From contig JAJDCE010000061.1 of the NCBI GenBank assembly GCA_029260985.1, forward strand, positions 1 through 36,855: DNA of 36,855 bases. Direction: 5' to 3'. The notes below the pieces were generated by a model. That model was not told where the DNA came from, made no database searches, and worked only from the letters and a program-made list of their open reading frames with translations. This DNA comes from Patescibacteria group bacterium (GTDB taxonomy: Bacteria > Patescibacteriota > Gracilibacteria > UM-FILTER-43-11). Made by a program: the position numbers and the translations under genes. Positions 2,115 to 27,636 of the stretch are shown here, one piece after another (within the stretch, counting starts at the first letter, position 1; every line of letters begins with the position of its first letter).

Positions 2115-2561
2115 TTATACATCATCTCTTGCTGTAAGGTGAATTAAATCTGGCGGTATTTTTCTGACCTGAACCGTATTAGCGCCAGCTAATACCAATT
2201 GAACAAATCTATGGAGACCATCTAAAGTCAGCCATTTTCCCCTCCTGTTTTTCATAACATCAAGTGGATACGAGGTATCTCCGCCATTAATTCTATCGCG
2301 ATGCTCAGGATATTGATCTGCATTCTGGATAACCTCATTCGGCGTAATCACTATGTCACCTCGCTCATTTTCCCAAAATGGAACATCAAGTATCCACAAC
2401 AATTCATCTATCTCCATTTCTTCAACAGGAACATCTAATGCCCATAATTTTTCATTATCTCTCCAAAACGGCAAATCAAAGGCATGCTCAGTATGTCTCG
2501 GATCAACATATATATCCCTCTCCGTATCGGCCTGTGATGAACTTTCAGGTGACTGAATCAT
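2115..2561 (-). CDS. hypothetical protein with a ParB/sulfiredoxin-like nuclease-domain motif
   Basis: 148-aa ORF lying 24 nt upstream of the helicase. The C-terminal WLTLDGLHRFVQLVLAG resembles the DGxHR core of ParB N-terminal domains. Has a duplicated LDVPxxE/LDVPFW motif. Confidence 0.6.
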   Translation of the reverse strand: MIQSPESSSQADTERDIYVDPRHTEHAFDLPFWRDNEKLWALDVPVEEMEIDELLWILDVPFWENERGDIVITPNEVIQNADQYPEHRDRINGGDTSYPLDVMKNRRGKWLTLDGLHRFVQLVLAGANTVQVRKIPPDLIHLTARDDV

Positions 2562-2567
2562 AATATT

Positions 2568-2595
2568 ATTATATATAATAATTTAAATTTGTCAA
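2568..2595 (-). promoter_or_regulatory. sigma70-type promoter, TTGACA-N16-TATAAT (exact consensus); predicts a leaderless mRNA
   Basis: Reverse complement of 2590-2595 is TTGACA and of 2568-2573 is TATAAT, with a 16-nt spacer. The A of the ATG at 2561 lies 7 nt downstream of the -10 element. Confidence 0.7.
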
Positions 2596-2632
2596 TACAC
2601 TGAAATAAGCCAAAAACAAGCTAATGGTAAAG

Positions 2633-2717
2633 TGGTGAGCGATGGAAGACTTGAACTTCCGACCTCTACATTATCAGTGTAGCGCTCTAACCATCCGCCT
2701 AAGGCGGATAATCGCTG
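2633..2717 (-). pseudogene. tRNA-Ile-like duplicate with its D-arm replaced by a 7-bp hairpin (att-like repeat or degenerate tRNA)
   Basis: 2633-2693 matches 2972-3032 at 60 of 61 nt (anticodon arm, T-arm, 3' acceptor strand, CCA). The 5' D-stem strand GCTCAGC is replaced by TCCGCCTTAGGCGGA. The acceptor stem has a C1-C72 mismatch. Confidence 0.6.
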
Positions 2718-2953
2718 AGTATTTGCTTTAAGTATTCACGACCTTTTCCTGACTTCAAAAATTTTTCTCTTCTTCTGGCATCATTTTGAATTTCATATTC
2801 CTCAAAATAGACAAGAGACCACGGACCTCTTTTTTGAGTATAGGAGCTAAAGCCATCTATCAAGGTGTGCTTTATTATTCTTTTTTTCAAATTACTCGTA
2901 AAACCTTTATATAGAATTCCTTTAGAATTCCTCATTACGTATACAAAATACAT
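2699..2953 (-). CDS. small GIY-YIG nuclease superfamily protein (UPF0213/YhbQ-like)
   Basis: 84 aa. N-terminal YFVYVMRN..GILYKGFTSNLKKRIIKH is the GIY...YxG...R..xH pattern. The TAG stop lies at the apex of the 2693-2709 hairpin. Confidence 0.85.
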   Translation of the reverse strand: MYFVYVMRNSKGILYKGFTSNLKKRIIKHTLIDGFSSYTQKRGPWSLVYFEEYEIQNDARRREKFLKSGKGREYLKQILSDYPP

Positions 2954-2971
2954 TCTAAATACAAAAATAGA

Positions 2972-3048
2972 TGGTGGGCGATGGAAGACTTGAACTTCCG
3001 ACCTCTACATTATCAGTGTAGCGCTCTAACCAGCTGAGCTAATCGCCC
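2972..3048 (-). tRNA. tRNA-Ile (anticodon GAU), CCA encoded
   Basis: Hand-folded cloverleaf: GGGCGAT/ATCGCCC acceptor, GCTC/GAGC D-stem, CTACA/TGTAG anticodon stem with loop CTGATAA, GGAAG/CTTCC T-stem with TTCAAGT loop, then ACCA. Total 77 nt. Confidence 0.93.
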
Positions 3049-3060
3049 TTTGATTTTAGA

Positions 3061-3093
3061 CTCTAACCATCTGCCTGAGGCAGATAATCGCCC
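3061..3093 (-). repeat. orphan tRNA 5'-fragment carrying the same hairpin-type D-arm as 2686-2717
   Basis: The reverse complement GGGCGATTATCTGCCTCAGGCAGATGGTTAGAG parallels the 5' part of the 2633-2717 copy. The hairpin 3069-3085 differs from 2693-2709 by a compensatory C-G to T-A pair change. Confidence 0.6.
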
Positions 3094-3142
3094 TCTTAAA
3101 TTGACGAGAAGAAAGATACCGAAGCCCTGAAAACAAGTCAAA

Positions 3143-5350
3143 TTATTTTTCTTCAAAATCGATATCTGGATTACTCGGAATCGCTATTGAGCCTGTCATT
3201 TTACCCTTCTCAATAGAACCGACCACATTAAATGGGCCATCTGCAGAAACTTTCTGACCCGCCGCATCAATAGTTGCATCAAGACTTCCGCTCAAAACAA
3301 ATACCCCCGTGATCTGATCAATAGAACCCGTACAGCGGGTCGAATTCGCAGAACCGGAACCTGTTGAAGAATTACCGGCAAAAGTCGTAGTAAACGAAGT
3401 ATTCATAGCTGTGGTACAAGTAGCAGACCCATCTTCGTTAAAAGTGATCGCTATAGTCCCGGACGTTGTCTCAGTCACCGAAATTGTCATCCCTTGCTCA
3501 GAATGAGTTTGGGTATTAGGGCGGCTAAAGCTGGCTGTTTTTGTGCCGACAAAAACCGTGTTAACAATCTCTTCATCCTCTTCTTCAGCCTCCTCCTCAG
3601 ACGGTGTTAATCTGATCATTCCGTCCCAAGAACCTACAATATACTCATCAGTGTAATCTTTAATCGCGTAAGTAAACGGAGACGTCACCGATCCAGACTC
3701 ATAACCCTTGGCCGTCACCGAAATCGTAATATTAAGTGGCGTAGGTTCAATCGTTGGTTTTACCAAAAAAGTTCCATCATCAACCGTTCGGTCTGAACCT
3801 AAACTTTTCCCCCCACTGGTTTTGATAGTCACCACCGCATTTTCAATTGATTCCCCCTCAACAGCATCAATCACCTCCCCGGTAATATAGGCATCAGGAT
3901 CAAGCTCAAAATTGTAAGGAATGTCTAAATAATCCTTTCCGCCAACGGGCATTTCAAAAACATCCGCACCATTGGTTATTTGAATTTTTCCGGATGACAT
4001 GGAAATGTCGTAACTGGCGTCTTCAAAACCTTGGGCCTTAAAAGTAACCGTGTAAGCTCCTCCATTCTGAAAATAAACTTCGTAGGCCGCCCCCTTATTC
4101 CATTCCCCCCTAATATCTTCCTTGATACCTTTACTCTTTGCACTAATTGTTCCCACGCCAATCAGCGCCTTGGTAGCGCTATTTTTCAACGTTCCTTTTA
4201 CGCGAAAACCTTCACTTAAAAAACCGGGTAAATAATCAAATCCCTCTTCTTGGATTGTATCAAGGATCGCCCCCATTCCGCAGTTAAGGAGATCTCCTTT
4301 GCAAGGGCCAATTTCGGAATCAATAGTGGCAAATCGAGTTGCCAGCTGTGCGCAGCCTAAATAAGCAAGGGGAGATGAAGCTCCGCCTGTAAATAAAATA
4401 CTCCCTAGGCCAATACCGCATCCAATCACACTCATAGAAGTTCCAAAATCAGGCATTTCTTTCAAAAAACAATCAAATTCTTCATTTTTACAGAATTCAT
4501 CAACTGCCAAACCAATTCCCAACTTCAACAGTTTAACATCAGGAGGAAGAGCTGCGTCAAATGCGTCATATAAAGTTTCAGAAGTGATGCGATCTTCATC
4601 AATTGTTGAAGCATTAGCTGAAGGGAAAAACCAGTTATATATAACCGCCTGAAATTTAGAAGAATCTAGAGTTCTGGTTAAAGTTTCTTTTGTTCCATCA
4701 GGCTTTGTAATGGTTAAATCCACCGTCGTTTCAGTATAGTTACTAAAATTTACAATCGTTCCGTTAAAAGTAAATGTTCCCGGAAGTCCATAATCATTTA
4801 TTTTCATCAGCCCTTCTGTGCCATCATTACCTCTTATCACCACCGCATCAGGGTATTTTTTACCATCAACTGTTTTAGTCATAAACGCCATTCCCTCACG
4901 GTTTTCAGAAACAACTACCGAATGAACATTGCTATTTGGATCTGTATTTCTATGAATCACAGTTTTCCCAATTTCTGTCACAGGCTTCCCTACACCGCAC
5001 TTAAGTTTGTAAAACAATTCAGTCTGGCAGCGAATTCCATCCTTGCCATCGTTTATAAAACATACATCAAAAGCTTTCCCTTCAAACTCTTCCTGATGAA
5101 CAGTGCCCTTCTTCTCCTTACAATAATTAGCCCACTTTTGCTTATCTGGAAACCTGACTATATCTGACGCCTCTTTCGCAGGCGTTTTCATCACCCCTCC
5201 TTCACTCTTCTCAGCTTCTACCAGTTCTGTTTTTTCAAAGCGCTCAAGAATCTGATCAACCAAAGGATCAGAAGATGTTGAGTAATCATAAACCAAGTAG
5301 CTCCCTCCGATAAAAAGAAGGGCAAAGATGAGTTTAAATAGGTTTTTCAT
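3143..5350 (-). CDS. large membrane-anchored/secreted hypothetical protein with carboxypeptidase-regulatory-like (Ig/PEGA-type) beta domains
   Basis: 735 aa. N-terminal TM/signal anchor (LFKLIFALLFIGGSYLV), Cys-rich segments, and a GEVIDAVEGESIENAVVTIKT..DDGTFLV segment typical of CarboxypepD_reg-like folds. Confidence 0.75.
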   Translation of the reverse strand: MKNLFKLIFALLFIGGSYLVYDYSTSSDPLVDQILERFEKTELVEAEKSEGGVMKTPAKEASDIVRFPDKQKWANYCKEKKGTVHQEEFEGKAFDVCFINDGKDGIRCQTELFYKLKCGVGKPVTEIGKTVIHRNTDPNSNVHSVVVSENREGMAFMTKTVDGKKYPDAVVIRGNDGTEGLMKINDYGLPGTFTFNGTIVNFSNYTETTVDLTITKPDGTKETLTRTLDSSKFQAVIYNWFFPSANASTIDEDRITSETLYDAFDAALPPDVKLLKLGIGLAVDEFCKNEEFDCFLKEMPDFGTSMSVIGCGIGLGSILFTGGASSPLAYLGCAQLATRFATIDSEIGPCKGDLLNCGMGAILDTIQEEGFDYLPGFLSEGFRVKGTLKNSATKALIGVGTISAKSKGIKEDIRGEWNKGAAYEVYFQNGGAYTVTFKAQGFEDASYDISMSSGKIQITNGADVFEMPVGGKDYLDIPYNFELDPDAYITGEVIDAVEGESIENAVVTIKTSGGKSLGSDRTVDDGTFLVKPTIEPTPLNITISVTAKGYESGSVTSPFTYAIKDYTDEYIVGSWDGMIRLTPSEEEAEEEDEEIVNTVFVGTKTASFSRPNTQTHSEQGMTISVTETTSGTIAITFNEDGSATCTTAMNTSFTTTFAGNSSTGSGSANSTRCTGSIDQITGVFVLSGSLDATIDAAGQKVSADGPFNVVGSIEKGKMTGSIAIPSNPDIDFEEK

Positions 5351-5412
5351 AAATTTATTTTAAGGTCTTCGTAGAGTCTAACACGAAAAACCTATCATGA
5401 AAATCATGAGTC

Positions 5413-6930
5413 CTATTTGACCAATTCACCCGTATAAACCACCTCGAAAGCAGAACCGGGAACCGATTTGAGCTGTCCCAGATCGTCATCATCCCACTTA
5501 GCATTGGTCTCACCCGTAATAAACCAATCGGAACCATTATCAGCCACAATCATCCCATACTTTTTCAAAGCCTTCAAAATCACCAAAGCATCACCGGTAA
5601 AACCGGAAAGATCATAACTGGCTTTCAATCGCAAACGAAGCCCCATGGGTGAATGATTGGGATTGGTGGAAGAACTTGCATAATGAGTAGCGGGCTTGAT
5701 GTAAGCACGTTGGGATTCGCTAACGGTAAATCGAAGGGCGTGATTAATTTCACCCGATTTCACCTCATCGTATCGAACCAAACCTGGGAAAATCGGTAAA
5801 CCTGCCGCGTCAGCAGACGTCCAGCCGTCGGGTCGAAGGGCATTAGAATTGAGATCAAAAATGGCTCCTGATCCAACCTCCCATCTTGAACCTGACCAGG
5901 TAGAATCAAACGTTTCGTAAAGCTTACAGGCATCGGTATCAATCACCAGAATATGCCCGTCACTCCCCGCTTCAATCTCGGCACCGGAAGGAATAGGATA
6001 TCCTTCAGCAGGAAGATCGCTTTCATCATCATAATAAGCGCTAATCGGCACTTTCTTTTGACTGCTATCCACAGTCATCCACGGAATTCCGTAATCCGGA
6101 TTAGAACCGAAATCAGGGTGAATATTAGAACGGCCAGATAGAATTGAATTGATATAGCCGTCTGAGTTTTCATGAAGAGAATAGCCTGAAACATCAGTAT
6201 TCCAAGGATTGTCCGCAGGGAAGACCTGACACGATCCGACCTTCGGCGCGTCAACAGAGTTTTGAGTTTTCTCCTCCACCTCTTGGCTCTCTACATATTG
6301 GTGGGCTTTAGCAATAATCTTAGCTGCTTCACCTCGAGTGATTTTATTTCCAGGGCCAAACCGACCATCATTATAACCCTGAACATACCCCTTCATTACT
6401 GCAAACTGGATGTATTTTTTAAACCATTGATTCGACACATCAGAAAAATTTGAAAAACCACCCTTAATATCTGCATCAGAAAAAGCTGACAGCAAAATCA
6501 TTTTTAAAGCTTCAGCACGGTTCACTGATGTATTTGGCCTAAAGGAGCCGTTTGCATATCCCTTCACCCAACCCATTTTTTTTGCCTTATAAACCGCTGG
6601 AGCATACCAGGCAGATTCACTCACATCATAAAAATCATCCGAAGTGGTCGTTAAATCGCTCCCAAATTTACATTGAGTGAGCATCTTCGCAAGTTCAGCC
6701 CGAGTAATGGGTGTATCAGGTCTGAATTCCCCCAAATATTCACCATCTGCATTCTTAAAGCCATAAATTTGACACTCAGTTTTCAACTTATCTGCAAATG
6801 CCTTAGACCAATGAGAAGAGGTATCCCTAAAATCACTAGGAGGAGTTGCTGCAAACGCCATCGTAAAATAAACCGCCGTTAAAAGTATAGCGACAATAAT
6901 CGACAGAAGAATATGTATCGGCTTTTTCAT
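5413..6930 (-). CDS. S-layer-homology (3x SLH) domain cell-wall protein with an uncharacterised conserved C-terminal domain
   Basis: Signal peptide followed by three SLH repeats (F.D......W....I........G.v.Gy.dG.FrP...itR.E.a.mi). The C-terminal ~280 aa contains TSADAAGLPIFPGLVRYDEV...HALRFT. Confidence 0.85.
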   Translation of the reverse strand: MKKPIHILLSIIVAILLTAVYFTMAFAATPPSDFRDTSSHWSKAFADKLKTECQIYGFKNADGEYLGEFRPDTPITRAELAKMLTQCKFGSDLTTTSDDFYDVSESAWYAPAVYKAKKMGWVKGYANGSFRPNTSVNRAEALKMILLSAFSDADIKGGFSNFSDVSNQWFKKYIQFAVMKGYVQGYNDGRFGPGNKITRGEAAKIIAKAHQYVESQEVEEKTQNSVDAPKVGSCQVFPADNPWNTDVSGYSLHENSDGYINSILSGRSNIHPDFGSNPDYGIPWMTVDSSQKKVPISAYYDDESDLPAEGYPIPSGAEIEAGSDGHILVIDTDACKLYETFDSTWSGSRWEVGSGAIFDLNSNALRPDGWTSADAAGLPIFPGLVRYDEVKSGEINHALRFTVSESQRAYIKPATHYASSSTNPNHSPMGLRLRLKASYDLSGFTGDALVILKALKKYGMIVADNGSDWFITGETNAKWDDDDLGQLKSVPGSAFEVVYTGELVK

Positions 6931-6961
6931 GACAACGTTTTATTTTATAAAAGAGGTCTGA

Positions 6962-6990
6962 ATTATAACGAAAATAATGCAAGAAGTTAA
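6962..6990 (-). promoter_or_regulatory. promoter TTAACT-N17-TATAAT for the SLH gene
   Basis: Reverse complement of 6985-6990 is TTAACT (overlapping the TAA stop of the upstream ORF) and of 6962-6967 is TATAAT, with a 17-nt spacer. Lies ~30 nt upstream of the ATG at 6930. Confidence 0.5.
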
Positions 6991-7796
6991 CCCGCCATTC
7001 CATCTGCATAAGCCTGCATTTTGGGGAAAGCCCTCTCAACCAAATAACGAACCATTCTGCGCAAACGATTAGCATCGCAATTAAAACCGGTTTCGAATCC
7101 AAATTTCTTAAGCAAAGTGCTTATGGTAGCATCCTGAGCATCCTGAAATCTGAGTAAAATTGCCCTAATATACCCCCTTCTGTCGTCCAAATTATACAAA
7201 CGGGTATCAATCTGAGTTAACTTACCCTCTCTTGCAATAACATCACCTACCTCAACACCACATTTCGACATTTCTATTTTGGAATGTATATCGGCATCTG
7301 GGAGCTTTAGATTGCTAATGCTGGGATTCAAAGTTTTCTTTCTAGGGTTTAAAACAGCACCAAACTCACCCAATAACTGACCCCCTACAATATCCAAACC
7401 TCTGCTATCGGACTGTCTAATAACCTGACCAATGCTAAAAATATCAAGCAATTGCCGCCTCACCTCTTCAGAATGGAATAAATGAGCCACTCTCAAAGTC
7501 TCAGCATCTAGATAGCCCTGACGTAAATAATATTCTGCCACCTCATGATGAACTTTGCCATTTCTAACCAACGTCTCACCATGATTCTCAGTGGGAGTTA
7601 CTGTAAGACCATGCCGACACTGAGTTTCATAATCAAATTCAGCCGCTTCAGGGCGAGGATCCTGCCAAATTTTACCAAACCAATTTGGTATTTTATGAAC
7701 CTCCCCTCTTTCTTCATCTAGCCAAACACTATGTTCAGCACCGGATGTCTGACGACCTTTTAACCTGACTATATCTGGATTACTGGATTTATTCAT
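6987..7796 (-). CDS. hypothetical protein, translationally coupled to queG
   Basis: 269-aa ORF. Its ATG overlaps the queG stop (ATGA, 7793-7796). I recognise no family. Confidence 0.7.
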   Translation of the reverse strand: MNKSSNPDIVRLKGRQTSGAEHSVWLDEERGEVHKIPNWFGKIWQDPRPEAAEFDYETQCRHGLTVTPTENHGETLVRNGKVHHEVAEYYLRQGYLDAETLRVAHLFHSEEVRRQLLDIFSIGQVIRQSDSRGLDIVGGQLLGEFGAVLNPRKKTLNPSISNLKLPDADIHSKIEMSKCGVEVGDVIAREGKLTQIDTRLYNLDDRRGYIRAILLRFQDAQDATISTLLKKFGFETGFNCDANRLRRMVRYLVERAFPKMQAYADGMAG

Positions 7797-8872
7797 GAAC
7801 AGTTCAAAGATAATTGATCAATAGCCCAACGGGCGTGGTCTACAAGCATATCATCAGATTCTCGATCCACAAAATCTTGAAGTAATGGGGTTAAGCTGAC
7901 ATCTCCTGAATTCCCAGCCACAACGCAAGCATTTCGGAGAAGGCCTCTCCGCTTCGCGCGCATTAATGGAGTACCCGCAAACTTTTCCAAAAACTCCTCA
8001 TCCGTTTTGATAGATAAAAGTTCTTTCAAATCTAAAGAACTCCCAACTCCTGACTCCGGACTAAGAACTTTTATAGTGACTGTCTGATGATGAGCTCTGC
8101 CAACATTAAAAGGACAAACCTCTTGGCAGATATCGCACCCGAACAAACGATTGCCGATTTTAGACCGAAGCTCTACCGGAATCCCCTCTTTATTTTCAAT
8201 CGTTAAATAAGATATACACTTCCGCGCATCAATCTGACCAGGTTTCACGATAGCACCGGTAGGACACGCCATCTGACACTTTTGGCAGTCTCCGCAATTC
8301 GGAAAATGCCGTTTTTCAGTCGGCCTAAGTTCTAAATTTGTATAAAGCGACGCTATAAAAAAGAAACTCCCCTTCGAAGGATCAATCAAACAGGAATTTT
8401 TACCAAAAAAACCAAGCCCAGCTGTCTCCGCCAACACCCGATCCACCGTCGGCCCACTATCGACCGAAACATACGTTTCGATTTCAGATTTCACATTTCT
8501 GATTTCAGATTTCAGCCAATCAGATAATTCAATAAGTCTTTTTTTAAGAACTTTGTGATAATCCTTCCCTCTCGCATACCGAGAAACAACTCCACTATTT
8601 GAGCCACGCGACGAAGGAGCTGAGCCACAATTGGAATATATCGCCCCCAATACAATCACTGATTTAATATCAGCCAATTTGTTCTCAGGATGAAATCGAT
8701 CCTCCTTCATCCGCTCCAAATAGTCTAAATCAGCTGAGAATCCTCTCTTCATCCAATCATCAAAAACCGCTTCATGTTTCTTCAAATTCTTCCTAATTTC
8801 CTCAAGCGAAACTACGCCATGAGTAGACCATCCTTGCCCTTCGATAAATTGTTCTAATTTTTTCGGATTCAT
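7793..8872 (-). CDS. queG: epoxyqueuosine reductase (tRNA queuosine biosynthesis)
   Basis: Two 4Fe-4S ferredoxin motifs (CGDCQKCQMACPTGAI; CDICQEVCPFN), GLGFFGKNSCLI, and a HEAT-like C-terminus. Length is typical of QueG. Confidence 0.9.
   Translation of the reverse strand: MNPKKLEQFIEGQGWSTHGVVSLEEIRKNLKKHEAVFDDWMKRGFSADLDYLERMKEDRFHPENKLADIKSVIVLGAIYSNCGSAPSSRGSNSGVVSRYARGKDYHKVLKKRLIELSDWLKSEIRNVKSEIETYVSVDSGPTVDRVLAETAGLGFFGKNSCLIDPSKGSFFFIASLYTNLELRPTEKRHFPNCGDCQKCQMACPTGAIVKPGQIDARKCISYLTIENKEGIPVELRSKIGNRLFGCDICQEVCPFNVGRAHHQTVTIKVLSPESGVGSSLDLKELLSIKTDEEFLEKFAGTPLMRAKRRGLLRNACVVAGNSGDVSLTPLLQDFVDRESDDMLVDHARWAIDQLSLNCS
8474..8515. repeat. six tandem heptamers (ATTTCAG family) in frame inside queG
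   Basis: cgtttcg atttcag atttcac atttctg atttcag atttcag gives 42 nt, or 14 codons (KSEIRNVKSEIET), in a variable loop of QueG. Confidence 0.85.
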
Positions 8873-8928
8873 AATATTACTTCTTCTGCCATTTTACCCC
8901 ATAAAACATTCCAAAAAAATGCAAAATA

Positions 8929-8937
8929 TGATATAAT
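8929..8937 (+). promoter_or_regulatory. extended -10 promoter (TGaTATAAT) for the K+ channel gene
   Basis: tgatataat at 8929-8937. The -35 is weak (TTCCAA at 8909-8914, 17-nt spacer). The predicted TSS near 8944 gives a ~129-nt leader. Confidence 0.4.
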
Positions 8938-8946
8938 ATAATAAAC

Positions 8947-8981
8947 ATTTCAGAATTCGCATTTCTGATTTGGCATTCAAT
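8947..8981. repeat. degenerate tandem heptamer array (ATTTCAG AATTCGC ATTTCTG ATTTGGC ATTCAAT)
   Basis: Seven-nt periodicity seen directly. Same unit family as inside queG. Confidence 0.7.
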
Positions 8982-9037
8982 CTTATACTTGAGAATTCTT
9001 ACATTCATTGCTAAATGAATAAATACTAAATGACATT

Positions 9038-9065
9038 ACGAAATCTGAAATCAGAAATACTAAAT
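9038..9065. repeat. inverted copy of the ATTTCWG heptamer array (ACGAAAT CTGAAAT CAGAAAT ACTAAAT)
   Basis: 9048-9058 (aaatcagaaat) is the exact complement of 8961-8971 (atttctgattt). The array ends 7 nt before the GTG start at 9073. Confidence 0.7.
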
Positions 9066-9072
9066 AAATAAC

Positions 9073-9648
9073 GTGGCTCAAACAAAAAAATTAAAAGAAA
9101 GCATCAAACTTCTCATAACCGCCATTTTCGCATTACTAGCTTTGGGCACCGTGGTTTTTAGCTATATTGAAGGTTGGAATTTAGTCGATTCTTTCTACTT
9201 TGTAACCATGACGGCTACCACAGTAGGCTACGGCGATTTCACCCCCACCCATGCACTGAGTAAAATAATCACGGTAATTTATTCTCTGGCCATCATCCCC
9301 TTTATCCTCTACGCCTTCACCGCCATCGCCAAATATGAAGTGGAACGGGTAAATAAACAAATTCATGGAATTGCTCTTAAACAAAAGGAAAATAAAGAAG
9401 AGATAGAAAAAGCAGAACGCAAGCTTCGTGATCAAAAACAACTAATGAAAGAGCAGGAAGAAATTCTGGAAAAACAGGAAAAACAACTTAAAAAACAGGT
9501 TGTAATCAATAAAGAACAGGAGGAAGAACTTGAAGGGCATCAGAAAAAAATCAGAAAGGCGGAAAAAGAACTAAAAGAGCATGATGAAGAACTGGAGGTT
9601 GTAGAGGAGGTTGTAGAGGAGCAAATAGCTAAAAAAATAAAAAAATAA
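9073..9648 (+). CDS. minimal two-TM potassium channel with a long charged coiled-coil C-terminal tail
   Basis: GTG start. Two TM helices flank the selectivity filter TTVGYGD. The C-terminal ~100 aa is K/E/Q-rich with heptad-like spacing. No RCK domain. Confidence 0.85.
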   Translation: MAQTKKLKESIKLLITAIFALLALGTVVFSYIEGWNLVDSFYFVTMTATTVGYGDFTPTHALSKIITVIYSLAIIPFILYAFTAIAKYEVERVNKQIHGIALKQKENKEEIEKAERKLRDQKQLMKEQEEILEKQEKQLKKQVVINKEQEEELEGHQKKIRKAEKELKEHDEELEVVEEVVEEQIAKKIKK

Positions 9649-9866: not shown

Positions 9867-10406
9867 ATGAGTATGGAGTTAAGCCTATCAATGAAAAGGT
9901 TTCTGGAAAAGGCAAGAGCCTGGCTGCTTCAGGGGATCGATATGATCGACGATCTCCTGGGAGCTAACGAAGCTGCCGACGAAGAAGGTCAGGCTGCTGG
10001 GGATCCACCGTCCGAAGAGCCTGCTCTCGCAGCAGCATCTGAGGAGGCCACAGCACCCGCCGAAGAGCCTGCAGCGGAAGAACCTGCCGTTGAGGAAGCC
10101 GAAGCCGAGGGTGAAGCCGATGATGAAGGCAACACCGAGACCGATGGTGACGGTGAAAGCGACGACGCCGATGGCGACACCGCCGATGGCGACACCGCCG
10201 AGACCGATGAAGGCAAAGGCGGCGGCGAGGCAGAAGAGCCTGATGCCGAGGGCGACGGCGAAAAGTCCGACGACGCTGAGGCCGAAGCCAAAGATGGTGA
10301 AGGCGACAGCAGCAACGATGGTGACGGCGAAGCCGAAGCCGACGCTGCACCCGCCGAAGAAACTGCAGCCGAAAAGGCCGAAGCAGAGGCCGCAACCCCT
10401 GCCTAA
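9867..10406 (+). CDS. extremely acidic low-complexity (E/A/D/G-rich) protein, compositionally atypical
   Basis: 179-aa ORF preceded by AGGAGA 7 nt upstream of the ATG. Amphipathic N-terminus, then a long Glu/Asp/Ala/Gly tract with a 15-nt tandem duplication (gccgatggcgacacc x2). About 65% G+C with C-ending codons. Confidence 0.65.
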   Translation: MSMELSLSMKRFLEKARAWLLQGIDMIDDLLGANEAADEEGQAAGDPPSEEPALAAASEEATAPAEEPAAEEPAVEEAEAEGEADDEGNTETDGDGESDDADGDTADGDTAETDEGKGGGEAEEPDAEGDGEKSDDAEAEAKDGEGDSSNDGDGEAEADAAPAEETAAEKAEAEAATPA

Positions 10407-10477
10407 AAAACAGCGAAAAGGCGCAGGGTCAGCGAGCGAAGGGCGACTAGAACTTATTGGGTGCTCCGTGTAACAGC

Positions 10478-10491
10478 GGGGCCCCTTTTTT
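10478..10491 (+). terminator. possible terminator: GGGGCCCC palindrome followed by T6
   Basis: ggggcccctttttt, 70 nt after the acidic ORF stop. The stem is short, so the call is weak. Confidence 0.35.
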
Positions 10492-10513
10492 AAATATAAA
10501 AATTTTACAAACC

Positions 10514-10544
10514 AAAAAATCCAATCGTATCCACAACTGGATTT
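10514..10544 (-). terminator. intrinsic terminator closing the 16S transcription unit
   Basis: Minus strand reads AATCCA-N14-TGGATT followed by a T-run (TGGATTTTTTGG), ~145 nt downstream of the 16S 3' end. Confidence 0.55.
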
Positions 10545-10688
10545 ACTATTGGATCTGCGATGGAACCTCCATCGGTATTATGTACTAAATGCAGTAAAGA
10601 ATTCTTAGAGTTCACGACCGTATGTAAGTCTCGCCTTGAATTAAACACAAGCTTTAATTCACGATGAGCAAACATTGCTTTCTCCTTT

Positions 10689-12152
<1,464 letters not shown>

Positions 12153-16852: not shown

Positions 16853-19108
16853 TTACTGTAATTCACCCTTAGCAACAATCACATCACTAAATGAGTGTAC
16901 ATTATTTTTATCATCTGTTACCTCCAATGTCACGCTATAAGTCCCAGGATTTTCAAAAGTATGAGAAGGTTTTCGACTATCACTCGTCTCCCCATCTCCA
17001 AAATCCCAACTATACTCACTCACCGCGCCGGTAGAACATTTAGAATCAAAAGTGACCGCTAAAGGAGCATTGCCTTCTTTTCGACTTGGCTCAAAACAAG
17101 CCCTGAGGGGAATTTCACGCACATAAATCGTTTGAATGGTTTCTGCGGACTCATTGTTATCCGTAGTTATTTTCAGCGTCACCTCGTAAGTTCCTACATT
17201 GTCGTATTTATGAGAAATTCGGGCGCTTGTAATGGATTTAGGCGACTCATCGCCAAAGTCCCATTCATAGCTCACAATACTGCCCTTATAAGCGCTAGAG
17301 GCAGAGCCGTCAAAGTTAACCGTAAGCGGAGCTGTCCCCTCTCCCGGATCAGCTGAAATAGACGCCTTTACGCCAGGCTCTTCAACGGTAACGGCAAGCA
17401 TAGTATTGTGCTTCTGATCCTCAGAATCTTTCACGGTAAGCGTTACCGTATAAGTACCCGCTTCTTCGTAAGTGTAATCAACTTTCTGACCCACCTGAGT
17501 CGCATCCTCTCGTCCAAAATCCCAGTTATACTCCACAATATCATCATCAGAATCAGTAGAAGTAGAGGCATCAAATGAAATCTTAAGGGGAAGTTCACCG
17601 GACAATGTTCCTTCAGCAGTTGCTGCCGGAGTAGTTGTGATGCGGGCTTCCGGAACAGAAGAGATAGAACTGGTTTCTACATCCACCGATACTACAGCCT
17701 CATTGCCGGTATCTTCAGTAACAGTAAGGGTAACCTTATAAGATCCTGGATTGCTGTAAACATGAGAAACTGATTTGCCTTTTGAAACCTGCGAACCATC
17801 TCCAAAATCCCATTTATAGCCAGTGATTGAACCTTTTAAACTTTTGCTCTTCTCCCCATCAAACCGCACCTGAAATGGAATAACACCGGTTAACCCTGGA
17901 GTCGCCTCAATATCAGCGCTCAGCAATGGCTGACCTGCCTTAGTGATTTCAACATCCCGGTAAAAATTCTTAACTAAGTTCTGCTCATCCACAAAACGAA
18001 GGTGAACTGCAAATGTGCCTATCTGTTCAAATTTATGAGAAGGCTTAAGATTGTCTTTACCAGTCAATTCATAAATACCATCACCATCAAAATCCCAGTC
18101 GAGACTTTTTACTTTAGCCCCCTGAGGAATCAAATTACTGGCATCAAATTGAACCTCAAGTGGCGCCGTGCCACTTGCGGGACTCGCTTCAAACAGGGCG
18201 TCTTCAATCGAAAGTAGATAATTATACTGCCGACGAGCGTCTTCACCTGTAATCGTTACTTCCACCCCTACATTATAATTACCTTGTAAATTATAGAGAT
18301 AGGAGATTTCAAGATCAGTGGCTGGAGTATTAAACGAACCGTCCCCTTCAAAATCCCAATTAAGAGCCGTGACTTGAAGTTTACTATTTTGAAGAGATTT
18401 TACGATATTCTCAGCGCTAAAAGTAACTTCAAGCGGAGCCTTAAGACCAGTCAATTCAGTGGGTTTGACCACGGTGATCTCAGCCAGCACTTTTTCAGCA
18501 GCAATTTCAATCTTACCGATAAAATTGTAGAGAAATAACCAGATAAACATCACAAGAATCATGGGAAGAACACCTACCAAAGTCATCTTTATGCCGCTCT
18601 TTTTAGCATCCTTATCTCCTTTCTTGGCAAAAAGAATTTTAAACACACCAATAACGGAGAGGACAAAGAAAAGGAGAGCCAGCAAGCCAAATGAGAGATT
18701 TACAATGGTTAAAAGAAAACGCTTTATGCCCGCCGCATCAATACCAAACGTGGCCAAAATAGGACTTTGCTCCCCGCCCGCAGCAATCACCAGCACCATC
18801 AGTACCACAAACACAACAAACAGACCTGCTAAACTCAAACCAATAATTGAAAGAAATTTGGCATTGCTCTTACGCTTCGCATTCTCCTTTCCGATTTTTG
18901 TTGGCGCAGGAGCAGGGGGTGGGGCAGGCTTAGTTTCTTCTGCACCTCCAGAGGGCTTGGGAGCAATGGGCTGCGCTTCGGAAGAGGGTTGATTAGCCTG
19001 AACAGTCTCAGCCTCAGGAGAAACTTGAGGTTGGTTTTCTGCAGGAACACCCTGAGAATTCTGACCTTCAGGCTGCTGCACATCATTTGGTAGATTTTCG
19101 TCTGACAT
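16853..19108 (-). CDS. multi-pass membrane protein with six extracellular PKD-type repeats
   Basis: 751 aa. Pro/Gln/Ala-rich N-terminus and ~4 TM helices, then six repeats each carrying WDFxGDG-type motifs (WDFEGDG, WDFDGDG, WDFGDGS, WDFGRED, WDFGDES, WDFGDGE). Confidence 0.85.
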   Translation of the reverse strand: MSDENLPNDVQQPEGQNSQGVPAENQPQVSPEAETVQANQPSSEAQPIAPKPSGGAEETKPAPPPAPAPTKIGKENAKRKSNAKFLSIIGLSLAGLFVVFVVLMVLVIAAGGEQSPILATFGIDAAGIKRFLLTIVNLSFGLLALLFFVLSVIGVFKILFAKKGDKDAKKSGIKMTLVGVLPMILVMFIWLFLYNFIGKIEIAAEKVLAEITVVKPTELTGLKAPLEVTFSAENIVKSLQNSKLQVTALNWDFEGDGSFNTPATDLEISYLYNLQGNYNVGVEVTITGEDARRQYNYLLSIEDALFEASPASGTAPLEVQFDASNLIPQGAKVKSLDWDFDGDGIYELTGKDNLKPSHKFEQIGTFAVHLRFVDEQNLVKNFYRDVEITKAGQPLLSADIEATPGLTGVIPFQVRFDGEKSKSLKGSITGYKWDFGDGSQVSKGKSVSHVYSNPGSYKVTLTVTEDTGNEAVVSVDVETSSISSVPEARITTTPAATAEGTLSGELPLKISFDASTSTDSDDDIVEYNWDFGREDATQVGQKVDYTYEEAGTYTVTLTVKDSEDQKHNTMLAVTVEEPGVKASISADPGEGTAPLTVNFDGSASSAYKGSIVSYEWDFGDESPKSITSARISHKYDNVGTYEVTLKITTDNNESAETIQTIYVREIPLRACFEPSRKEGNAPLAVTFDSKCSTGAVSEYSWDFGDGETSDSRKPSHTFENPGTYSVTLEVTDDKNNVHSFSDVIVAKGELQ

Positions 19109-19196
19109 TTTATTTTATTTTAAGTCGAAAATATTTTATCATAATACTAGACTTTTCAACAAGCTTAGTCCGCCTGCACTGAGCGCAACCGAAGTA

Positions 19197-19245
19197 TAGT
19201 CCCTAGTCCCTAGTCCCTAGTCCTTAGTCCTTAGTCCTTAGTCCC
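19197..19245. repeat. seven perfect-register tandem heptamers (TAGTCCC x3, TAGTCCT x3, TAGTCCC)
   Basis: Read directly. The array ends at the base before the TTG start at 19246. TAG/TAA appear in all frames on both strands. Confidence 0.95.
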
Positions 19246-20085
19246 TTGCTAATAGATTACCACCTACACAATCACTTCTCCCCAGACAGCGAAACTGACA
19301 CTACGCAACTGATTGAACATATGAGAGATTTGGGGATCAATCATCTCTGTATCACCAATCACGGGGAGTTTTTTATTCACGAAGAGGAAATTGTTGGAGT
19401 GTTTGAATATGCCGAAGCCCACAACCGCTTTCAGAAAGACAAAAATGAACTCGATGAGATAAGATCGAAATATCCTGATATGGACATCCGTTTTGGCATT
19501 GAGCTCCAATATCAGCCAGAATGTCACGACGATATAAAAAAATTGATGAACGAACTTCCCTTTGATTTTGCCCTGGGCTCCGTCCACTTCATCGACAATA
19601 TCATTATTTCAGGAGGAAAAAACGCCGGCCAGGCTTTTGAGAAAATGGATGAAGAAACCGCCTACAATAAATACTTCAACTCCATGCTCGAATGGGTTGA
19701 GTTAGCCTATTTTGATGTCGTCGCCCATTTCGATATCATCAAAAAGTTCGGCGTAAATTACTACGGGCCCTTTCAGCCCGAAAAATACAAAACAATCATC
19801 CAAAAGATCATCCAAAGCATGAAGGAAAAAGGAATTGGAATGGAACTGAATGCTGCCACTTTGCACAAACGCTGCAACGAAATAATGCCCCATCCTCAAA
19901 TCCTAAAATGGTGCCTGGAAGCTGGAATCGAAACCTTTACCCTCGGCACCGATGCCCATAATCTCGAAACCGCCGGAAAACTGATCCCCGAAGCCCTACA
20001 AATAGCCAAAGACGTGGGTATCACACATCTTTCCACCTTTAAGAATCGTCAACCAGTACGACATGAAATCCAAAGCGCAGAGTAG
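19246..20085 (+). CDS. PHP-domain phosphoesterase (HisJ-family histidinol-phosphatase-like)
   Basis: N-terminal DYHLHNHFSPDS metal-binding motif, with later GSVHF and GTDAHN motifs. TTG is the only plausible start upstream of DYHLH (in-frame TAG at 19225). Confidence 0.8.
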   Translation: MLIDYHLHNHFSPDSETDTTQLIEHMRDLGINHLCITNHGEFFIHEEEIVGVFEYAEAHNRFQKDKNELDEIRSKYPDMDIRFGIELQYQPECHDDIKKLMNELPFDFALGSVHFIDNIIISGGKNAGQAFEKMDEETAYNKYFNSMLEWVELAYFDVVAHFDIIKKFGVNYYGPFQPEKYKTIIQKIIQSMKEKGIGMELNAATLHKRCNEIMPHPQILKWCLEAGIETFTLGTDAHNLETAGKLIPEALQIAKDVGITHLSTFKNRQPVRHEIQSAE

Positions 20086-20115
20086 GTTTTCCAACCTGCG
20101 ATGCGTTTATTGGAT

Positions 20116-23100
20116 TTATTGCGGTTTTATCCAATCCGGCGTAGGTCCTTTTTCATCAGCCCCTGCACTTGTATCACCTTCAGAAAGTGGAGGTGTTTCT
20201 TGTACAGGTGGGGTTTCAGACTGAGGTGCTTCTGGTGTTGGATCAACTGGTGTTTCAGGCTGATCGCTTATCGCTGCCTGCCCGCCTTCTGGCGCGAACT
20301 GCTGATCGCTTTCAGCAGCAGGTTTCTTCTTCTTTCGGCGTCTTCGTCGTCTTTTTTTCTTCTTTGGAGCTTCGCCTTCTGGAGTTTCAACAGGAGGAAC
20401 AACAGGAGCCTTGGGCATTTCTGGTGCTGGCTCCTCTGCCGGAACTTCATCAGTTTTTTCCTCAACAGGAACTTCTTCAGTTAAGGGTTCAGAAACCTCC
20501 TCCGTTGGCATTTCCTCTGGCATTACCTCCTCAGTTGTTGGCTCTGAAGTCTCTGGAGCTACAGGAACCTCCTCAATTATTTCCTCAGCAGCTTCATCCA
20601 CTGGCAACTCTTCATCCAAGGATGGTTCAGAATAGCCCTCACCCAATATATCAAGAGGTTCTTCAGCAGGCATTGGAGTTTCAATTCCCTCCTCAGGCGA
20701 AGAATAATCTTCAGAAAACTCTGGAGATTCATCGGACAAAGGTTCAGGAGATTCATCTTCAACAGGAAGCTCGAATGATTCTTCATCGATAGACTCCGCA
20801 TTGTCCAAAGAAATTTCCTCTTCCGCTTCCCCTTCAATCACCTCAGTTCCCTTTAACCACTCAGGCACAGGGCCTTCCGCTTCAGTCGTAAAATCAGCTT
20901 CGACTGGCTCACTGCCTACGGCAGGTTCGGCAGGTGCCTCTTCCTGAGCAGGCTCAGGCGCTTCAGTTGTTTCTGCAAAAGTCTGTGGAGCAGTGGGTTC
21001 TGCAACCACTTCCGCAGCTGAATCATCCGTAGCCTTAACAGAGGGTTGATCAGTAGGCGTAGGCACATCCGCAGAGGGAGCTTCGGTAGCCTGAGGCGTA
21101 ACAGGAGGCGCTTCATGCGCTCCGATCATCGTCAAAACCTTCGCTTTAAATTCATCAATCAGCTCTTCAAAAGTTAGGTCTGGATGCTGAACTTTAAGGT
21201 AGGCAAGAAAACCGCCAACAATAAGAAGAATAAGACCAAGCACAATTACAATCAGTAAAAAGAATATCTTCAGAAGCCGGATAAACACATTTGATTTCTT
21301 GACCTCTTGCTCCTCACCACCAGTAACCATCATTGCGCCATCTTCAGCACCCACCACATCAGCCGCGTCAGCAATCTCAATTTCAGTGGATTTAGTATCC
21401 GTTACCTGATCTGAATCCGTAATAGTCAAAGTCACCAAATACTTACCCTTAACGGTATAACTATAGGTAGGATTCTCCCCCCCTATTTCAGCGATCTGAT
21501 TCTGATAATTTGAATCATCAGTATCTCCAAAACTCCACTGATAGAAAAGATTTTTATCAGTCAAATTATAGGAAGCTGAAGAAAGATTAGTGAAACTCAC
21601 CGTAGAACCTGAAACCTCATAAGAAAAATTAGCTTTAGTGAGCTCAACATCTTTTGCAACAATATCTAAAGTCCGCTCAGCAGAATTACCCGCTTTATCA
21701 GAAATCTTCGCTGTAACGGTAAAAGCGCCTGGCTCATCATATATATATTGGGTTGTATTATCGCCTTCAATTTCTTTATCGAATGTTCCATCTCCATCAT
21801 AATCCCATTCAAAAGAATACTGACCCAAACCTTGTTGAAGTCCTTGAACCGTAAACAAAATAGGATCTCCCTTAACCACAAAATCTTTGTCAGCTGTTAA
21901 CTGAATACCACCCGCTTGCTCTACATCTTTAATAGAAGGGGCAGGTGAAGCTGGCTTATCCCCAAATGTGATTTCTTTCTGAACCCGGCTCCCTTTACCC
22001 TCTTCACCCACTACAATAAGCTGGGCAATGATCTGTTCTTCTGTTTTTGCATAATCAACATCAAAAACGTCACCGGTCTTAAAAGAAAGGTCGTTGAGAT
22101 TATCAATGTCATTTTTAGGATCACCATCACCGTCACTGTCTTCAAAAATATTCTTATCGAGTCGATATTCCAGTATCCTTCCTTCCGAAGGACGGGCATA
22201 AAAAGAAACAGTATGAGAATCTTCCCATAAATGAATTATACTATCGGTTTCATCGGCCTTAGGCAGCGTCTGGAGGATTGCTGTGGGATCACCGGTAGTC
22301 CGATGTTCCTCAAACAAAATTTCAACCTGCTTCTTAACCTTTTTACCACTCTTATCTACTAAAGTCACCTCAGCAACAGTTTTAGCTGAATCACCCTGTT
22401 TATAATCAGCCGACCAAGCCGTGCCTGTTAAATACGAGTTGTCAGAAGCATTGTCGATATCGTTATTGGCAGTACCGTTATCATCGCTATCTTCATATAT
22501 ATTCTGATCAATACGATATTCCAATATATCCCCATAAGAATCAGCCAGTTCAAATTGAACCTTGCCGTCACCCAGTAACGTCACTTGATCCGAACCATTC
22601 ATCGGAGGAAGCGTTTTGAGATGAATAGAAATCAATGATTCACTCGCTCCGGTAGCCACCGTCGCCTTACCTAAAACTTCACCGTCTTTCGAGACCACTT
22701 CACCAGAGTCATTCAACGTTCCAATTACCTTACCGGTCTCATCGACTACAACATTATTTCTACCAACCGTTCCAAGCGCCTTCCCGTCTTCATCCCGAAG
22801 GATATCCCCCAGCTTCGCGTCAGAAACAGGTGTGGCGGAAAGACGGCTGTAACGGTCTCCGGATAGAACATTTATTGTTGTGGATTCAACTTCATTACCA
22901 AAAGTGGCGGTTAAATTGATTTTAAATTCACCTTGGCTATTAAAGGTATAGCTAAAATTACGCCCGGCTTGAGTCGCTAAAATTTCAGTTCCCTTTGCCA
23001 CTGTCCATTTATAGTTAGCAGCCGAATTCTTACTGTCTGCGATTAAATCAGCTCGCTCACCGATTTTGACTTCCATCTTCCCACTCGCCATCACCAGACC

Positions 23101-23160: not shown

Positions 23161-23200
23161 TTAATCTTCTAATCTTTTAATCTTGAATCTTGTAATTTAA
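23161..23200. repeat. tandem 7-8-nt repeats (TAATCTTN x3, AATCTTG) filling the gap between the two giant genes
   Basis: t taatcttc taatcttt taatcttg aatcttg taattta, immediately upstream (minus strand) of the ATG at 23160. Confidence 0.8.
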
Positions 23201-23204
23201 TAAA

Positions 23205-27197: not shown

Positions 27198-27201
27198 AAA
27201 T

Positions 27202-27636
27202 TTACTGTTTCTGAATACCCGTTACCAGCTCCTGGGTAAGGAGTTGGACAATGCTGTAAGAAAGAATCACAACAATCAGGCCGAGTACCGCATAAATCAT
27301 CACCTTCTTGGCCTTCTGAACCTGCTCATCATTACCATAAGCCGTGATATACAAAACCCCAGCGTAAACAAAGCCGACAAAAGCCGCAATCGCCAGGAAC
27401 GGTAAGGCAAAATTCACATATTTTAGCACCAAATCTCCTACATCACTCGTTCCAGTCACCCCACTACCCTCAAGAGAACCTTTAATATTATCCACTCCCG
27501 ACTGAGTATCTGTCTTTGTTTTATCTTCAGAGCCCTTAAAGATCTGAGCCAACCCCTTAGGCGCAAAAGCAAAAAACAGCACCATCACTGAGATGATTCT
27601 GCTATAAACATTTTGAATTATTTGTGCAATTTTCAT
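27202..27636 (-). CDS. VirB2/TrbC-like (T4SS-pilin-type) small membrane protein
   Basis: 144 aa. Signal peptide ending GLAQ, then two TM helices joined by a short basic loop (YGNDEQVQKAKK). This architecture matches conjugative-pilin-like proteins abundant in CPR genomes. Confidence 0.75.
   Translation of the reverse strand: MKIAQIIQNVYSRIISVMVLFFAFAPKGLAQIFKGSEDKTKTDTQSGVDNIKGSLEGSGVTGTSDVGDLVLKYVNFALPFLAIAAFVGFVYAGVLYITAYGNDEQVQKAKKVMIYAVLGLIVVILSYSIVQLLTQELVTGIQKQ

Follow-up and report, generated by a model that had tools for sequence, protein, structure and literature searches.

A small GIY-YIG nuclease gene, a conserved hairpin and a disabled tRNA copy form a recurrent, integrase-free cassette, a candidate selfish element of bacterial tRNA genes

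The GIY-YIG homing endonuclease gene segB lies within the tRNA gene cluster of bacteriophage T4 and spreads by break-induced gene conversion, in the course of which flanking markers are co-converted (PMC2330249). Here we describe, from a 36,855-nt stretch of the genome of a Patescibacteria group bacterium (contig JAJDCE010000061.1; hereafter the window, to whose numbering all coordinates refer unless a relative is named), a cassette in which an 84-aa GIY-YIG open reading frame (ORF) is set between an intact tRNA-Ile(GAU) gene and a second, hairpin-bearing and disabled copy of the same gene, which we call tRNA*. By analogy, the cassette appears to work most like a free-standing homing endonuclease gene: in both cases a GIY-YIG nuclease gene sits among tRNA genes in neither an intron nor an intein, and the co-conversion of flanking markers seen with SegB is matched by foreign tRNA* alleles at some cassettes. 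The likeness has its limits, for the Seg enzymes are much larger, possess DNA-binding modules, belong to the I-TevI/UvrC branch and are phage-borne, whereas the cassette encodes nothing more than an 84-aa domain of the Slx1 type, resides on the chromosome, has no viral copies, and always comes with a conserved hairpin and a disabled tRNA duplicate. We judge it on balance probable that this is a selfish nuclease cassette with no promoter of its own, which resides on tRNA genes, spreads by way of tRNA homology and uses the hairpin as its cis element. The literature that we searched holds no account of small tRNA-adjacent GIY-YIG genes with a hairpin; apparently, then, this is an undescribed class of selfish nuclease-gene elements, with a non-trivial chance that a new mechanism underlies it.

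A second precedent is atp6-ORF360 of Allomyces mitochondria, a mobile endonuclease ORF that carries a substitute piece of its target gene and leaves the displaced piece behind as a pseudogene. There, too, the insertion brings its own part of the gene, and a partial, non-functional duplicate stands on the far side of the ORF. The present cassette differs in its bacterial tRNA target, in a duplicate that retains both gene ends and is interrupted by the hairpin, in an ORF that can lie on either side of the working copy, and in the occurrence of tandem arrays and ORF-less remnants. Integrase-borne islands and prophages with their attL and attR sites share with it the complete and partial tRNA genes standing as direct repeats that end at the tRNA 3' end. 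However, the cassette has no integrase, its insert measures about 0.3 kb against the 5-100 kb of islands, a hairpin marks the junction, and the partial copy includes the tRNA 5' strand; a study of tRNA fragments (bioRxiv 10.1101/2022.07.05.498093) makes no mention of small GIY-YIG genes with a hairpin. The hairpin itself recalls the cis elements of IS200/IS605 TnpA, REP/RAYT and integron attC systems, in which a short imperfect palindrome acts as a folded strand with polarity. Those systems employ HUH or tyrosine recombinases with covalent intermediates and do not duplicate the target gene; the cassette, in contrast to IS200/IS605 and REP/RAYT, has no HUH (Y1) transposase, the GIY-YIG protein being the product of its only ORF. 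Short GC-rich palindromes in structural RNA genes or near endonuclease ORFs are also known as Rickettsia palindromic elements, mitochondrial GC clusters and double-hairpin elements; from these the present hairpin is set apart by its length of 14-15 nt, its near-confinement to spare tRNA copies next to the nuclease gene and its replacement of about 7 nt in place of a simple insertion.

On the minus strand, the window locus reads as a 33-nt tRNA 5' remnant (3061-3093), the intact tRNA-Ile(GAU) gene with an encoded CCA (2972-3048; called by ARAGORN, 74.3 bits against Rfam RF00005), the GIY-YIG ORF of the Slx1/UPF0213 type (2699-2953; Pfam PF01541) and tRNA* (2633-2717). The remnant, GGGCGATT + ATCTGCCTCAGGCAGAT + GGTTAGAG, has no ORF and joins tRNA-Ile nt 1-8 (3093-3086) to a hairpin (3085-3069) and then to nt 17-24 (GGTTAGAG, 3068-3061), and the 12-nt spacer TCTAAAATCAAA (3049-3060) parts it from the intact gene. 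Between the 3' end of that gene and the ATG of the ORF lie 18 nt (2954-2971) with no promoter and no evident ribosome-binding site. tRNA* is built of tRNA nt 1-8 in the form CAGCGATT, the hairpin ATCCGCCTTAGGCGGAT and tRNA nt 17-77, and terminates exactly at the CCA; the element hairpin, ATCCGCC-TTA-GGCGGAT (2693-2709), replaces tRNA nt 10-16. The end of the ORF overlaps CAGCGATT-ATCCGCCTTAGGCGGAT, its last six codons and stop being encoded by the 5' acceptor strand of tRNA* and the hairpin, and the TAG spans the hairpin loop (CCT TAG), at the apex where the preliminary description of this DNA had put it. A repeat finder recovers a 61-nt direct repeat (2633-2693 and 2972-3032, identical at 60 of 61 positions) that brackets merely 339 nt, and a 31-nt repeat containing the hairpin (2685-2715 and 3061-3091, 28 of 31). 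All the placements first proposed, of the remnant, the tRNA-Ile gene, the ORF, the second copy, the repeats and the hairpins, hold at their coordinates, far beyond chance: the pattern of hairpin followed by GGTTAGAG has just these two sites in the window, with 0.00 expected from 100 shuffles. The single other exact hairpin core in the window, at 32152, lies inside a ferredoxin-like coding sequence (codons AACGG) and was rejected as a chance match. Upstream of the entire cassette is a promoter-like site (TTGACT-17-TATCTT, 3113-3141, minus strand) with 9 of 12 matches to the consensus, a consensus match only. A scan of 2400-3400 gave no terminator-like site in the intergenic spacers or past tRNA*, the sole such site (2831-2813) being within the ORF, and no recombinase, transposase or integrase domain was found among the 24 window ORFs scanned against Pfam. 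Logan contigs covered the window at only 2-4x, mixed with tRNA matches from other organisms; none of their joints was trusted and they were not used. RNA runs shared nothing with the locus beyond generic tRNA words and were left aside as well.

This anatomy recurs widely. A scan of one genome per species returned 304 relatives of the ORF, from which 80 loci were fetched, and the comparative set comprises 88 homologous ORFs in 81 loci (relative loci are given L numbers). The closest homologues (57-75% identity) belong to Peribacteria-like Patescibacteria. The first three loci fetched already had the anatomy of the window locus, and the set is spread over many classes of Patescibacteria, Bacteroidota, Ignavibacteria, Calditrichia, Acidobacteriota and other groups. 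An intact, co-oriented tRNA gene, of one or another of about 15 isotypes, lies within 150 nt of 69 of the 88 ORFs, upstream in 38 (at a gap of 4-126 nt) and downstream in 31; most of the other 19 either stand where a contig ends or belong to the interior of a tandem array. The ORF invariably shares the strand of the tRNA and starts a few nt past a tRNA 3' end, while its conserved end (…GKGREFLKxxL) abuts nt 1 of the following tRNA. At 12 loci (e.g., L073 2234-2243) it overlaps the downstream tRNA by exactly 9 nt and takes its stop from the tRNA's U8-A9-G10 (TAG), so that normal 5' processing of the tRNA would remove the stop codon of the ORF. Across the ORF, and often on both sides of it, stand partial copies of the same tRNA, usually 100% identical, with a hairpin CCGCC-N2-4-GGCGG; where the working tRNA is downstream, tRNA* is shortened at its 3' side. 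The architecture is shared by independent assemblies, including the contigs OY760935.1, OZ252287.1 and OY775914.1, which are titled as whole chromosomes, and isolate genomes, and no recombinase occurs in the called genes around the relatives. Among cultured bacteria, Sediminibacterium goheungense DSM 28323 (with two tandem units), Winogradskyella immobilis, Marixanthotalea marina and Psychroserpens sp. are carriers. The recurrent unit is the ORF with the hairpin and tRNA pieces, without an integrase, as had been suggested from the window alone.

The family consensus of the hairpin is R-TCCGCC-N2-4-GGCGGA-T (14-15 nt), with compensatory changes. Its exact core is found 108 times in the 87 kb within 400 nt of the ORFs (1.24 per kb) and 5 times in 229 kb of far flanks (0.022 per kb), a 56-fold enrichment. 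A slightly looser form of the hairpin lies within 150 nt of 70 of the 88 ORFs, against a background of 4 per 173 kb. Thirty-one stem positions have changed on both sides and yet pair, and these changes are of at least eight different kinds. At position three of the stem the peribacterial reference loci show three of the Watson-Crick pairs and the window the fourth (TCTGCC/GGCAGA). The two window hairpins, ATCCGCC-TTA-GGCGGAT in tRNA* and ATCTGCC-TCA-GGCAGAT in the remnant, differ by one paired C-G to T-A change and one loop base; the change does preserve pairing, as first noted, and is thus one case of a family-wide covariation rule. The loop is 2-4 nt long, free in sequence and commonly non-palindromic, and this speaks for one strand folded on itself more than for a duplex bound by a dimer. 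For the outermost pair, 18 loci have G..T and 6 have A..C, and 77 of 109 loops begin with T, so that the hairpin has a polarity relative to the strand of the ORF and tRNA; a duplex palindrome bound by a protein dimer is disfavored by this polarity together with the loops. These comparisons of sequence indicate that the stem is under selection for pairing, with a strand polarity, and in this it presents the covarying, polar, conserved hairpin characteristic of IS200/IS605 or REP/RAYT elements. The clade variants GTCGCC/GGCGAC and CCCGCC/GGCGGG are each inherited with their ORF clade, the GTCGCC variant being present in L077 and L078, which have 74% amino-acid identity and opposite arrangements.

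Sixty-seven hairpins are flanked on both sides by pieces of one tRNA. Here, the hairpin usually takes the place of 6-8 nt that belong to, or border on, one of the loops (D, anticodon, variable or T), with no target duplication, and different arms are replaced in different clades. A second, longer palindrome, CCTGCCTGCC(G)GCAGGCAGG, stands in for the usual hairpin in flavobacterial tRNA-Arg loci, where it is a pure insertion between tRNA nt 22 and 23 (L073 1940-1990, also L048, L060, L069 and L076), and it is found again within the anticodon loop of the tRNA* of the peribacterial locus L006 (2270-2290). We also observed that the variant stem of the window, CTGCC/GGCAG, resembles the core of this longer palindrome. 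Further forms of the hairpin were seen in two other relatives: an upstream remnant at L009 1850-1885 has a hairpin nested within a partial hairpin, and L008 (1700-1740 and 1805-1845) has a 105-nt unit that is repeated twice and in which nt 1-13 of the tRNA precede a longer CCCGCC…GGCGGG stem.

ARAGORN does not call the copy at 2633-2717 as a tRNA gene, and the copy's Rfam tRNA score of 38.1 bits lies above the gathering score of 29 with an alignment that begins inside the hairpin, skips 13 D-arm positions and mismatches the acceptor pairs; lacking a D arm and with a misplaced acceptor stem, it is not that of a normal tRNA. tRNA* fails as a functional tRNA, in that tRNA finders do not call a complete cloverleaf. 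It does have its own acceptor 5' strand, CAGCGAT, which pairs with ATCGCTC at 6 of 7 positions and includes an A2-T71 pair where the intact gene has G2-C71, and a four-way fold reminiscent of a tRNA is predicted for it (-30.8 kcal/mol, z = -2.9), in which the hairpin makes up one of the arms. The preliminary description had proposed that the fragment 3093-3061, if joined to the downstream 3' part (2685-2633), would restore a tRNA-like molecule. We reject the two as halves of a split original gene in the general anatomy, since the close relatives L004, L005 and L006 have the full cassette with no upstream fragment and tRNA* has a matching 5' acceptor strand of its own. The remnant, with a fold of -13.5 kcal/mol (z = -3.0), has counterparts upstream of the tRNA at L016 (three), L007 (two), L012, L022 and L009, and those of the peribacterial loci retain just 8 + 8 nt around the hairpin. 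The 12-nt spacer that follows it in the window begins TCTA, as does the spacer from tRNA to ORF, which fits a remnant that is a unit that lost its ORF. It may be the relic of an earlier, ORF-less unit, of the sort that accumulates next to tRNA genes with such cassettes. The hairpin unit is not represented by any Rfam family.

The protein matches PF01541 over residues 1-71 (45.1 bits against a cut-off of 22.6, E = 1.2e-11). Across 21 homologues Y15, G17, R25, H29 and E63 are invariant and Y5 nearly so (at least 90%), the catalytic set (the tyrosines of both motifs, GIY and YIG, the glycine of YIG, an arginine, a histidine and the metal-binding glutamate) being conserved. A profile of these homologues matches PDB 1zg2 (5e-16), 1ywl (5e-14) and the nuclease domain of SLX1 chains, and the AlphaFold model (pLDDT 84.9) finds BH0048, Slx1 and EF2693 at the top of a Foldseek search (TM 0.56-0.64). 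Profile and model together place the protein in the Slx1/UPF0213 lineage rather than with UvrC and I-TevI. It has the same fold and the same catalytic residues as BH0048, EF2693, E. coli YhbQ and eukaryotic Slx1, and consists of the catalytic domain alone with nothing added. Slx1 enzymes are structure-specific nucleases for branched DNA (compare the titles of PDB 6seh and 7cq4), and E. coli yhbQ presumably has no adjoining tRNA gene. Relatives of the cassette protein end alternatively in …GRLSAxADG or …G(A/D)YPPxADG, because the last residues are the translation of the tRNA 5' strand and hairpin. No model of NCBIfam or PADLOC matches it. An earlier survey describes the bacterial Slx1-like family as stand-alone, vertically inherited and of unknown function, and notes a GIY-YIG/TrmH fusion; it reports no link to tRNA genes or a hairpin (PMC1564403).

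Several lines of evidence bear on how the cassette behaves over time. The tRNA* of L011 is identical at 60 of 61 positions to the working tRNA-Val of another genome (L007) and differs from its own neighboring tRNA in three stems (acceptor, anticodon and T), each time with compensation; the T arm of the L006 tRNA* is the window-type allele. Such foreign alleles imply that either the disabled or the working copy in L011 and L006 came from another lineage. ORF clades hold to their tRNA type from phylum to phylum: members of the tRNA-Cys clade come from loci labeled Ignavibacteria, Calditrichaceae and Bacteroidetes, and the tRNA-Pro(GGG) clade in a metagenome-assembled genome (MAG) of Paceibacteria and one labeled 'Gammaproteobacteria' (74% identity), a pair whose opposite arrangements imply that the tRNA-upstream and tRNA-downstream forms interconvert. 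In related tRNA-Gly and tRNA-Cys loci the number and side of the ORFs differ. Flanked by the same pair of genes as in L006 and L016, one of them for a 309-aa protein, the cassette of L008 lies inverted together with its working tRNA-Ile and upstream remnants, a difference between one genus and two others.

Identical tandem units are present at L067, L079, L043 (from an isolate) and L017, the last on a contig whose title calls it a whole chromosome. The ORF of protein P0002 is followed by a working tRNA in one assembly, while a MAG contig ends with the ORF, tRNA* and the start of the ORF again. This 389-nt [tRNA*-ORF] unit (L062 1903-2321, equal to L001 2903-3321) appears as a cyclic 419-nt unitig in two lake metagenomes, at depths of 92.5x and 78.7x against 27.5x and 19.7x for the flank (3.4x and 4.0x), an excess that points to about three to four tandem copies or free circles. 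The duplication at L043 takes in the tRNA terminator, which places it at the DNA level; a retro-copy of the mature tRNA, to which repeats running from nt 1 to the CCA might point, was rejected on this ground and for want of a reverse transcriptase. ORFs decayed by stops or shortened are seen at L016, L027, L034, L048, L038 and L057. A search of 2.9 million viral contigs returned no relatives, and a phage search two weak matches only. As read from these comparisons, the cassette passes from one lineage to another, multiplies in tandem and undergoes decay, and the horizontal spread with co-conversion of flanks and cycles of decay that typify homing-type elements appear to be present. The interpretation first offered survives in its recurrent unit, its structure-constrained hairpin and its selfish behavior (foreign tRNA* alleles, tandem amplification, decayed ORFs and clades that keep their tRNA type across phyla), and is lost in its joined split tRNA. 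None of the three findings that it had named as contrary to it, namely, relatives with the same arrangement lacking the GIY-YIG ORF, a second copy that scores as a normal functional tRNA, or a hairpin absent from other GIY-YIG loci, was obtained.

We propose the following mechanism for such a selfish cassette, composed of an ORF of about 85 aa, a GC-rich hairpin of 14-15 nt and pieces of the neighboring tRNA that form tRNA* across the ORF. The ORF would have no promoter of its own and be expressed by read-through of the tRNA operon; in the window, the transcript would likely start from the site at 3141-3113 and run through remnant, tRNA, ORF and tRNA*. Processing of tRNA ends would bound the mRNA, truncate it where the stop lies inside the tRNA, and so keep a dangerous enzyme scarce. 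The cassette would enter and move by recombination, in the form of homing-like gene conversion or of integration, through the tRNA sequence that it carries, the sole sequence conserved between distant genomes. Where the longer homology is 3' of the hairpin (in the window, 61 nt against 8 nt), the working tRNA would come to lie upstream, and where it is 5', downstream. The protein is of a structure-specific lineage and carries no module for DNA binding; its probable substrate is something folded, be it the hairpin or a tRNA gene prone to form a cloverleaf, and not a long sequence, and the cut would start recombination. The hairpin on the sense strand would be the cis site of the nuclease, and may further disable the spare tRNA and interrupt a direct repeat that would otherwise delete the ORF.

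A number of observations weigh against this proposal. The working tRNA has the presumed target sequence, so that classical homing would cut the cassette's own genome. The two tRNA copies of L011 are each internally consistent and not chimeric, which a simple, single internal crossover does not predict. Homing leaves unexplained why the hairpin replaces about 7 nt at many positions of many tRNAs. The inner stem pairs include 10 G.U against 9 A.C, counts that do not separate an RNA hairpin from a hairpin of the sense DNA strand. In the literature searched, the bacterial UPF0213 family has no assigned function and no member with a known nuclease activity or target. Further, cassettes are present at syntenic loci in genera whose flanking protein is only 71-79% identical, which implies long vertical persistence under purifying selection and would also fit a host function. 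Finally, no empty site was found via relatives of the window's flanking genes. The 148-aa downstream protein has close relatives in 8 metagenome loci, none with a tRNA or synteny. The 735-aa upstream protein has one syntenic, distant relative (L093 1-6210 against window 3143-9648), where the order is ion channel, QueG, two ORFs (291 and 340 aa) and the 735-aa homologue; no tRNA-Ile or cassette follows, which places the window cassette at a synteny break.

Of the alternatives, the foremost, though itself unlikely, is a module acting at the RNA level or in the service of the host, in which the nuclease would have as its functional partner the tRNA-like transcript with the hairpin, and the tRNA linkage would reflect function, not parasitism. 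The transcript might be a decoy or antitoxin, as in type III toxin-antitoxin systems, or a processing or stability element, or the protein might act on the tRNA or its gene to the host's benefit. The persistence of cassettes with an intact ORF at syntenic loci speaks for such a role, as do the strict co-orientation of ORF and tRNA, the overlap of the ORF 3' end with tRNA or tRNA* and the sense-strand polarity of the hairpin. Full-length tRNA* copies do fold into the four-way shape with the hairpin as an arm, and the A2-T71 pair of the window copy is compensated relative to the intact G2-C71, but tRNA* copies shortened at the 3' side by a working tRNA downstream are unable to fold in a tRNA-like manner, the peribacterial remnants with merely 8 + 8 nt around the hairpin are shorter still, and the hairpin replaces different arms in different clades. 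Arrays of hairpins and tRNA fragments at some loci recall repeat-RNA antitoxins, whereas PADLOC and NCBIfam yield no match and the equal counts of G.U and A.C in the inner stem do not speak for RNA. The GIY-YIG/TrmH fusion hints at a link to tRNA (PMC1564403). Set against all this are decayed ORFs, tandem amplification and foreign tRNA* alleles, which are typical of a parasite.

Less likely again is that the hairpin is the real mobile unit, a minimal palindrome, akin to miniature inverted-repeat (MITE-like) or Rickettsia palindromic (RPE-like) elements, that the GIY-YIG protein installs in single-stranded loops of tRNA genes. Only dispensable copies would survive such hits, so that hairpins build up in spare tRNAs, and the tRNA duplications would be secondary, for example, through fork stalling and template switching at the hairpin. 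A single disabled copy may indeed hold two to three hairpins, in the D, anticodon and T arms (L022, L007, L043 and L083), and the hairpins of one locus differ in loop and stem variant, which means that they are not recent copies of one another. The usual replacement of 6-8 nt in or next to a loop, the hairpin units with no ORF (L027, and the remnants at L016 and L007), the pure insertion of CCTGCCTGCC(G)GCAGGCAGG at nt 22/23 in flavobacterial loci and the cutting of branched DNA by Slx1 enzymes all accord with this idea. On the other side, there is no flanking target duplication and target bases are lost, unlike in known transposition; hairpins are nearly absent away from the ORFs; and hairpin variant and position are inherited with the ORF clade, which makes most hairpins old parts of cassettes, not new hits. 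Moreover, the insertion of DNA by a GIY-YIG hydrolase has no known chemistry, and we know of no such enzyme that joins DNA.

More speculative still, and in our view a long shot, is a new kind of element in which the hairpin and its tRNA-derived flanks are an active nucleic-acid partner of the minimal GIY-YIG enzyme. In one version, the protein would recognize cloverleaf-folded, single-stranded tRNA-gene DNA and swap about 7 nt of a loop for the hairpin, and this, if true, would amount to a novel way of inserting DNA, confined to tRNA genes. In the other, transcripts of hairpin and tRNA fragment would be handle-plus-guide RNAs that steer the nuclease to tRNA genes, by analogy with the guide RNAs of transposons, which overlap their nuclease gene at its 3' end.

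The data already contradict the notion that the locus is the leftover of an integrase-borne island or prophage in tRNA-Ile with the GIY-YIG gene as its last cargo, and we regard it as very improbable. When the 3' part of a tRNA is directly repeated and the repeat stops where the tRNA does, this is indeed the classic signature of integration at tRNA genes (bioRxiv 10.1101/2022.07.05.498093). Against it, no integrase or recombinase lies in the window or next to the relatives, the repeat spans just 339 nt, the copy also holds the tRNA 5' strand and the conserved hairpin, and random decay of islands would not give so tight an anatomy at about 70 loci with the tRNA on either side. Chance similarity or an assembly artifact is barely credible, for although tRNA repeats confuse short-read assemblers and one MAG contig (L002/L062) ends inside such a repeat, no chance matches are expected and the architecture is found in the independent assemblies named above (OY760935.1, OZ252287.1, OY775914.1 and isolate genomes).

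Other features of the window lie apart from the cassette. A complete 16S rRNA gene (10689-12152, minus strand) stands alone, with no tRNA-Ile or tRNA-Ala spacer genes and no 23S rRNA gene in the window; the tRNA-Ile(GAU) gene, the only tRNA in the 36.8 kb, is 7.6 kb from it on the same strand with protein genes between, and thus the rRNA operon is unlinked. The stretch 3' of the 16S gene (10000-10689) is GC-rich (~0.53) and has no Rfam match, and an ORF that overlaps it (9867-10406, 179 aa) lacks any Pfam domain. At 32322-32396, after a small ferredoxin-like ORF, is a long, near-perfect palindrome (…CTAAGGGCTAGGGATTAAGGACTAAG…CTTAGTCCCTAGTCCC) with spurious microRNA-type matches alone in Rfam, which is probably a large terminator hairpin. 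A cluster on the minus strand (16853-27636) encodes very large PKD-repeat surface proteins (751, 1014 and 1330 aa) and includes two proteins with a domain like that of type IV secretion pilins, a set typical of episymbiotic Patescibacteria.

Should the proposal of a selfish cassette be borne out, the Slx1-like UPF0213 proteins of about 85 aa would gain a biological role and a testable substrate, namely, the 14-15-nt hairpin and the DNA of tRNA genes. The cassette would then exemplify a new selfish strategy for occupying an essential, universally conserved gene with neither an intron nor an integrase, in which one copy is kept working and one is disabled by the hairpin, the tRNA serves as portable homology, and its promoter drives expression. 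No known mechanism explains why the hairpin regularly takes the place of about 7 nt, and this regularity could reveal a new one. At a practical level, such loci yield tRNA-like pseudogenes that pass the Rfam threshold, and short-read assemblies break there. More broadly, where genomes are reduced, as in the Patescibacteria, tRNA loci may evolve under the influence of these elements.

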